Assembly: GCF_055900595.2 (NCBI RefSeq)
Contig: NZ_CM148325.1
Reading direction: 5' to 3' (one strand)
Length of the DNA stretch: 64,000 nucleotides
Shown here: positions 6,857-7,340 of the stretch, piece by piece
How positions within the stretch are numbered: position 1 is the stretch's first letter
How the letters are laid out: the number at the start of each line of letters is the position of its first letter
Program-made: the position numbers and the translations under genes
Notes under the pieces: generated by a model
Told to the model about the DNA's origin: nothing
The model's database searches: none
What the model saw: only the letters and a program-made list of their open reading frames with translations

Positions 6857-7340
6857 ATGAAAACTTTATTCACTTTGTTCATGTTGATTGGGGTTTTCAA
6901 TGAGGAAAGTTTCCAGGGTACAATCTCCATTAACCTGTTTCCGCAAAGCAAGTGGCATTTTACCGTTACCAGACCCACGTCCTGGTTTCGCCGTTCTCAT
7001 CCTCAAAGATATATTTCGCTTTTCTCACACCGCCTTTGGGTTTTCGTTTGGTTTCCGTTGTCCCTGCAATAGCAGAAACTGGACCCTGCCATTCTTCCGG
7101 GTCAAGCCCCACAGAAACGATGTACTCAAATACCTGTTGACATTTAGTTTCCAGTTCCTTACGTTCAGCCGCTTTTCGTTCAGCATCTTCACGGCGTTCT
7201 TCAATAACAGTGTTGAGCTTTTCCTGCATGTCGAGTAATTGCTCAAAATCAAGTTCGCGTACATACGTGCGTAGTGAACGAATATTCGTCATTGTCCGAC
7301 TGATGATGCTGTATTCTTCTTCTTTAGTCAGTTTGCACAT
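6857..7340 (-). pseudogene. H-NS family nucleoid protein paralog interrupted by an apparent +1 frameshift just before the DNA-binding motif
   Basis: ORF 6966-7340 (124 aa) aligns with the H-NS oligomerisation domain and linker (…NIRSLRTYVRE…KYIFEDENGETRTW) and then stops; the next frame downstream (6857-6965) encodes GNGKMPLALRKQVNGDCTLETFLIENP, which resembles the H-NS C-terminal DNA-binding domain (TWTGQGRTPAVIKKA…DDFLIK). Confidence 0.55.

Follow-up and report, generated by a model that had tools for sequence, protein, structure and literature searches.

The hns paralog analyzed here, located in a 64,000-nucleotide stretch of DNA (the window), is probably a genuine, inherited pseudogene allele of a 157-codon accessory H-NS-family gene, carrying a +1 frameshift (GG to GGG) and spreading horizontally. 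We place the probability of this reading at roughly 60%. The mutation would have arisen once, on a single island haplotype, as the haplotype data suggest. Carried by its island, the allele would then have reached several E. coli lineages and both Phe-tRNA sites through horizontal transfer and recombination, probably by hitchhiking with sucrose-use and resistance cargo. Since the gene has been inactivated independently in other island lineages, it is dispensable and repeatedly lost. The remaining fragment, if produced in stable form, could co-oligomerize with H-NS or StpA and weakly perturb them as a side effect.

The whole pseudogene lies on the minus strand at positions 6866..7340 of the window and equals the RefSeq coding sequence [quoted passage not shown] The corresponding frameshifted coding sequence in the RefSeq record of strain APEC O2-211 (4275365-4275839) maps to the same interval, 6866..7340, so that the gene ends at 6866 and not at 6857, as a preliminary description of this DNA had it. 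Within the pseudogene, the truncated open reading frame (6966..7340, minus strand) runs from an ATG at 7340 to a TAA stop at 6966-6968 and encodes 124 amino acids with the C terminus ...DENGETRTWVW. A Shine-Dalgarno-like GAGGGG (7345..7350, minus strand) is located 4 nt upstream of the ATG and, by our reading of the sequence, is intact in the frameshift allele.

The preliminary description had attributed the broken gene to a single inserted base and had named alignment to an intact paralog as a check. As the intact reference, we used the locus of E. coli 23CRST042, which encodes the RefSeq 157-aa "H-NS family histone-like protein" WP_000335225.1. The DNA alignment bore out the claim: one extra G was the sole difference within the gene between the window and the 23CRST042 allele. 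The site is a GGG run at 6974..6976 (minus strand), where intact alleles have GG, and the junction reads ACGTGG-TCTGG in the intact allele versus ACGTGGGTCTGG in the window allele. The sequence around the extra base had been quoted correctly in the preliminary description, but its position had been given as near 6962-6966, about 10 bases off. Translation reaches a stop two codons past the shift, which yields the terminal ...GETRTWVW. In the family alignment, the frameshift falls directly after Trp122, the invariant tryptophan that corresponds to W109 of H-NS, and before the AT-hook; the proposal that the open reading frame ends at the conserved tryptophan preceding the AT-hook core was thus correct. 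The remnant of the DNA-binding domain lies out of frame at 6866..6973 (minus strand). Read from 6973 to 6866, this frame encodes SGNGKMPLALRKQVNGDCTLETFLIENPNQHEQSE followed by a stop, with NGK at the AT-hook position, and it matches the C terminus of the intact 157-aa allele exactly, in agreement with the earlier claim that the next frame encodes an H-NS-type C terminus.

The resemblance to H-NS is real and not due to chance, as judged from matches of the repaired protein to Pfam families and to solved structures. Residues 11-83 matched Histone_HNS_N (PF22470; E = 2.6e-19), and residues 108-147 matched Histone_HNS (PF00816; E = 6e-5), a domain that is out of frame in the window allele. [quoted passage not shown] An AlphaFold model of the 124-aa product (mean pLDDT, 76) contained helices at residues 6-28 and 32-77, two short helices, a disordered stretch at 90-105, and a residual hairpin at 109-123. 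With respect to the two hallmarks of the H-NS family, the N-terminal coiled-coil oligomerization domain is present in the window allele, and an in-frame C-terminal DNA-binding domain with an AT-hook-like loop is absent. More precisely, the oligomerization domain with both of its interfaces survives in the 124-aa product, together with the linker and the initial beta-hairpin of the DNA-binding domain, whereas the AT-hook loop and the C-terminal helix are missing. From established H-NS biology, we infer that sequence-directed DNA binding, and hence silencing, would be lost in the truncated product.

The intact paralog is neither H-NS nor StpA, since its scores against the respective NCBIfam equivalogs (92.3 bits for NF008193, cut-off 211; 90.1 bits for NF007656, cut-off 202) fell far below the cut-offs. 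Identity to E. coli H-NS was about 40 to 43% for the repaired or intact protein (40% over 135 residues), and identity of the intact protein to StpA was 39%. Among plasmid proteins, the closest relatives, at 67% (tblastn) to 71% (alignment) identity, were the H-NS homologs that IncX4 plasmids encode in their topB-hha-hns backbone module, and the nearest relatives among all those found were full-length Sfx-like proteins. Pairwise identity therefore places the intact gene in the Sfx/HppX-like branch of the H-NS family, that of mobile elements and IncX plasmids; Fitzgerald et al. 2020 (PMC7544231) and Wang, Cordova & Navarre 2024 (PMC11796372) have described this group. The search of Fitzgerald et al. 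was limited to proteins more than 50% identical to H-NS (PMC7544231), so a paralog with only 40% identity lies outside their set. Our searches of the literature on island-borne and truncated H-NS paralogs, and on pheV, sucrose, and H-NS, returned no description of the present paralog.

The family alignment contained two subgroups. One carries the RGR AT-hook that is typical of Sfx. The second, which includes the present gene, the IncX4 homolog, and chromosomal copies from Salmonella, has a conserved WSGNGK.PLAL motif, with NGK in the position where H-NS and StpA have QGR and where most Sfx homologs have RGR. On the strength of this alignment, the NGK subgroup looks like an uncharacterized DNA-binding variant of the H-NS family. 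Conservation of the segment across proteins that are 60 to 70% identical indicates that the C-terminal domain is normally constrained. The present gene has in common with Sfx/HppX an N-terminal extension and an association with mobile elements. It differs from them in being chromosomal and island-borne, in not lying beside topB, in being frameshifted, and in the NGK AT-hook of its intact allele. Hfp (also H-NSB or Hns2) is another full-length H-NS paralog that E. coli has acquired horizontally and that lies on an island; such paralogs are scarce and assemble into heteromers with H-NS (PMC7544231, PMC7074111). However, members of the Hfp clade share more than 50% identity with H-NS, and Hfp resides in asnW and serU islands, whereas the present gene is 40% identical and resides at tRNA-Phe sites.

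To characterize how widespread the frameshift is, we used a 901-bp query around the gene and a 61-bp probe centered on the G run, the latter to discriminate alleles in complete E. coli genomes. Six complete E. coli chromosomes contained the 901-bp query at 100% identity, and four others had near-identical versions. Of the 121 complete E. coli genomes with the gene, 10 matched the probe exactly. For the remaining ~110 genomes, all of the matches listed (50 of 110) spanned 60 bases, that is, they were without the extra G. The carriers of the frameshift allele were APEC O2-211 (USA, chicken), WP2-S18-ESBL-08 and KOr019 (both from Japan, KOr019 from river water), E5 (USA, broiler), O111:H8 7-58 72A (USA, flies), Eco_23-2667 (St Kitts, dog), and a clonal set consisting of E14, E15, E16, and E32 (China, chicken). 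These 10 genomes come from unrelated projects in different laboratories, hosts, and countries, and they represent seven independent carriers. In a large protein collection, the exact 124-aa protein was encoded on 833 public contigs. RefSeq lists a pseudogene ("H-NS family ...; frameshifted") in every carrier genome that we inspected; the frameshift allele is thus already flagged in public annotation, and the pseudogene call is known. In GenBank, entries for the 124-aa product bear names such as "DNA-binding protein H-NS [E. coli SEPT362]," which calls for caution in annotation, as a product with this label lacks the DNA-binding loop.

The gene is part of a genomic island with a GC content of 40 to 47%, compared to 50 to 53% in the core. 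A tyrosine integrase open reading frame (16447-17667) lies beside the attachment site, the tRNA-Phe gene pheV (17814..17889, minus strand), whose equivalent is annotated in APEC O2-211. The paralog is arranged tail to tail with scrR of the scrKYABR sucrose phosphotransferase operon. On its other side, it is divergent from a gene for an outer-membrane beta-barrel protein (about 7659-8396), beyond which are a helix-turn-helix regulator and two hypothetical genes. No convincing open reading frame was present in the ~550 bp that separate the paralog from the convergently oriented scrR (6315-6865); in the same interval, after window position 6806, the E14 clone has a 1-bp insertion. A scan of window positions 6000-8000 against Rfam gave no match at E values up to 1. 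In the intergenic region between the paralog and the outer-membrane-protein gene (7533-7567), four GATC (Dam) sites occur within 32 bp in repeated ATCGATCG palindromes. This cluster, which is unique in the 64-kb window, resembles Dam-dependent phase-variable promoters but is at most suggestive, since four sites fell within 50 bp in 17% of trials when an equal number of GATC sites was placed at random.

Variation around the gene tracked the frameshift. Over 12.8 kb, APEC O2-211, O111:H8, E14, and E5 differed from the window at only 1 to 2 sites, and KOr019 and Eco_23-2667 differed at 11 to 17 clustered sites. Sampled genomes with the intact allele differed at 66 to 99 sites, nearly all of them in the 7.2- to 12.8-kb segment on one side of the gene. 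One haplotype extends over ~5.6 kb beside the gene in six of the seven independent carriers, separated by ~95 sites from the sampled intact-allele genomes. The exception is WP2-S18, where the frameshift is combined with the other haplotype beyond ~7.7 kb, which identifies this strain as a recombinant. The simplest reading of these patterns is that the allele arose once and then spread horizontally and recombined. Over the gene itself, the carriers were identical and had accumulated no further decay; the allele is young, and its expression would still be possible.

Island position and genetic background were also consistent with transfer. Nearly the same island with the same frameshift was found at pheU in two loci (L006 and L010) and at pheV in the window and in four further loci (L004, L007, L008, and L009). 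Among carriers, the island has two integrase variants and differing neighboring modules. The core flank in the window (17990-21240, yqgA-speC) was 100% identical to that of phylogroup-B2 strains such as CFT073 and Nissle 1917, but only ~97% identical to that of APEC O2-211 and E14, the other carriers examined. Since the flank is B2-like and unlike that of the other carriers, the host of the window is apparently distinct from all ten complete genomes with the allele and adds another genetic background in which this allele occurs. Meanwhile, class-1-integron/ISCR modules (sul1, qacEdelta1, CTX-M-2, and aac(3)-VIa) were present in the same island in four of the seven independent carriers. Hitchhiking with selected cargo of this kind offers a ready explanation for the frequency of the allele. 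In Eco_23-2667, a module bounded by IS6100 interrupts scrB.

The +G insertion is not the only lesion in this gene. A second frameshift, the loss of an A at codon 48 (GAAGAAC to GAAGAC; window about 7196-7202), was detected by exact probe in 18 of 147 complete-genome records, corresponding to ~16 strains. The island around the -A allele (loci L021 and L022, 7891-8363) is a shorter variant and has a different integrase, and here, too, the gene is labeled "frameshifted." In strain 504239 (L011, 5003-8139), an IS66-family element interrupts the same gene; this strain has a second IS66-like element (ISEc23) between the paralog and scrR, with IS2 and IS100 nearby. Together, the +G and -A frameshifts account for roughly a fifth of carriers, and about three-quarters or more are free of both. 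The pseudogene reading, which the preliminary description had listed as an alternative, is the best supported, both by the RefSeq annotation and by the independent second frameshift and IS insertion. It also accords with the conservation across the subfamily of the lost segment, WSGNGK.PLAL, and with the finding that the related Sfx protein needs its DNA-binding domain for repression (PMC11796372).

Searches at the protein level recovered many relatives with the N-terminal domain only, and those that we inspected were frameshift products, broken at various positions. Many RGR-type relatives were also frameshifted at various positions (P0068, P0069, P0077, P0081, and P0059), among them the UniProt entry Q46969 ("Microcin DNA binding protein"). 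The paper on the microcin H47 island does not mention this related "microcin DNA binding protein." One database entry (P0023) resembles the -A allele with the frame restored further downstream. A truncated relative (P0022) ends at almost the same codon as the 124-aa product, at the end of a contig and in a different island.

Despite this evidence for decay, it is conceivable that the 124-aa fragment is a functional antagonist that is expressed, forms mixed oligomers with H-NS and StpA (possibly also with Hha), reduces their bridging or DNA-binding valency, and thereby relieves silencing of island or virulence genes, and that the allele has been kept for this effect. Several observations that weigh against the pseudogene reading are in line with such a role. 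The N-terminal open reading frame, the start codon, and the Shine-Dalgarno sequence (the ribosome-binding site) are untouched. The full 3NR7-type oligomerization domain (H-NS 9-83) is kept and is modeled as helical with good predicted confidence. The allele is fairly common and crosses lineages, for which selection could also account. In addition, truncated H-NS derivatives that retain the oligomerization domain are known to be active elsewhere, a parallel that may extend to this product. H-NST relieves silencing (PMC3897749), engineered N-terminal fragments of H-NS also antagonize it, silencers that are truncated but keep the N-terminal domain can be dominant-negative (PMC7074111), and Sfx-type relatives interact with H-NS, StpA, and Hha (PMC11796372). 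This body of work on truncated H-NS, H-NST, and Sfx interactions makes the mechanism reasonable in principle.

Even so, we regard selection for an antagonist as unlikely. Expression and stability of the 124-aa fragment are hypothetical, and a promoter scan gave only weak 9/12 matches ~240 nt upstream, which are uninformative on expression. The hydrophobic WVW C terminus may, in our view, favor proteolysis. Stoichiometry also poses a difficulty: acquired paralogs can be much rarer than H-NS, as with Hfp in Salmonella, which is ~30-fold less abundant (PMC7544231), whereas the H-NS peptides 1-58 and 56-82 inhibit DNA bridging in vitro only at ratios of ~1:3 and above (PMC5647153). Furthermore, the cargo of resistance and sucrose genes offers hitchhiking as an explanation for the spread of the allele, and roughly three-quarters of carriers or more have neither frameshift. 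Finally, the deletion at codon 48 cuts inside the oligomerization domain, and the gene is also hit by an IS insertion. With disruptions that are not confined to the DNA-binding domain, dispensability or decay fits better than selection for a product consisting of the oligomerization domain, and the pattern points to loss rather than gain of function.

The preliminary description had gone further and had predicted an H-NST-like protein. H-NST is reportedly the subject of work by Williamson and Free from 2005. The proteins of this family (H-NST_EPEC and H-NST_UPEC; Levine et al. 2014, PMC3897749) resemble the present product in being island-encoded and in having an N-terminal oligomerization region without the canonical C-terminal DNA-binding domain, and heteromers with H-NS would in principle be possible for the 124-aa product, too. 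However, H-NST is encoded by a dedicated open reading frame of ~80 aa, of which the first ~40 residues are H-NS-like, whereas the present product has 124 aa and comprises both dimerization sites, the linker, and the hairpin remnant. H-NST genes are found in serU/IE3/EARL islands beside hfp (hnsB), in contrast to the present gene, which lies in a pheV/pheU scr island between scrR and the outer-membrane-protein gene. H-NST is a dedicated gene, and the present product stems from a recent 1-bp insertion in a 157-codon gene, an insertion that is absent in ~110 of the 121 carriers. For H-NST, key residues (Ala16, Arg60, and Arg63) have been defined, and both anti-silencing and DNA binding have been demonstrated (PMC3897749, PMC7074111). 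Judged by the size, origin, and island context described for H-NST, the 124-aa product is not a member of the H-NST family.

At most, the 124-aa product would resemble the truncated, dominant-negative forms of H-NS made in the laboratory, which have the same architecture of an oligomerization domain without a working DNA-binding domain. Such truncations interfere with H-NS and StpA or use StpA as an adaptor, and their effects depend on dose. The hns-205::Tn10-type truncations are further derivatives of this kind. Dominant-negative H-NS derivatives were reported by Williams, Rimsky & Buc 1996, as cited in PMC5647153. All of these laboratory truncations derive from H-NS itself, whereas the present product comes from a 40%-identical paralog, for which pairing with H-NS would have to follow the example of its relatives.

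Loss of the gene could also be adaptive. If the intact paralog were costly, or if it silenced useful island genes, any null allele would be favored and the truncated protein would be inert. At least three independent inactivating events in one small gene, two of them at appreciable frequency, are what this explanation would predict, and frameshifted variants abound in the related protein family. A cost is plausible in that overexpressed H-NS is toxic (noted in PMC11796372). Nevertheless, most carriers have the intact gene, the C-terminal domain is conserved across the subfamily, and neutral decay with hitchhiking fits the pattern equally, so that adaptive loss seems to us quite improbable. A broader proposal is that the recurrent, spreading truncations (+G at codon 122 and -A at codon 48) are selected, in that they would turn a silencer into an H-NST-like antagonist or abolish it altogether, with higher expression of island, virulence, or resistance cargo as the result in ExPEC, APEC, and STEC lineages. 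We consider it more doubtful still.

Two explanations would do away with the pseudogene altogether, and we dismiss both. A sequencing or assembly artefact in a really intact gene, an alternative raised in the preliminary description and now refuted, would invoke a common type of error, a one-base length change in a short G run; however, the run is only 3 G long, the identical allele recurs in complete genomes from independent projects as well as in the contigs that encode the exact protein, and, unlike a random error, it is tied to a specific flanking haplotype, so that independent genomes and haplotype linkage together rule it out. Programmed +1 ribosomal frameshifting (of the prfB type) or transcriptional slippage could restore a full-length protein, and a +1 shift at TGG-TAA-C would give one that is only two residues off the intact form. 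But the frameshift is not conserved, most orthologous alleles being in frame without any shift, and by our reading of the sequence there is no slippery codon and no prfB-like Shine-Dalgarno stimulator at the right distance. By established decoding rules, tRNA-Trp cannot re-pair on GGU. The G3 run is too short for polymerase slippage, and the region of window positions 6000-8000 was without an RNA-family match in Rfam. We exclude programmed recoding on account of the in-frame majority allele and the missing slippery and stimulatory signals.

As it stands, the pseudogene allele is a routine call that RefSeq has already made. Its wider interest is modest and lies partly in the intact gene, which stands for an uncharacterized chromosomal subgroup, marked by an NGK AT-hook, within the IncX-type H-NS family, and partly in the repeated loss of this gene and the circulation of a truncated allele among phylogroups and at both Phe-tRNA sites. 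Were the fragment active, pathogenic E. coli would have in this allele a natural polymorphism that tunes xenogeneic silencing, and the allele would illustrate one way in which H-NST-type antagonists could originate. If the truncations were selected, they would constitute a natural, repeatable route from full-length silencers to anti-silencers.
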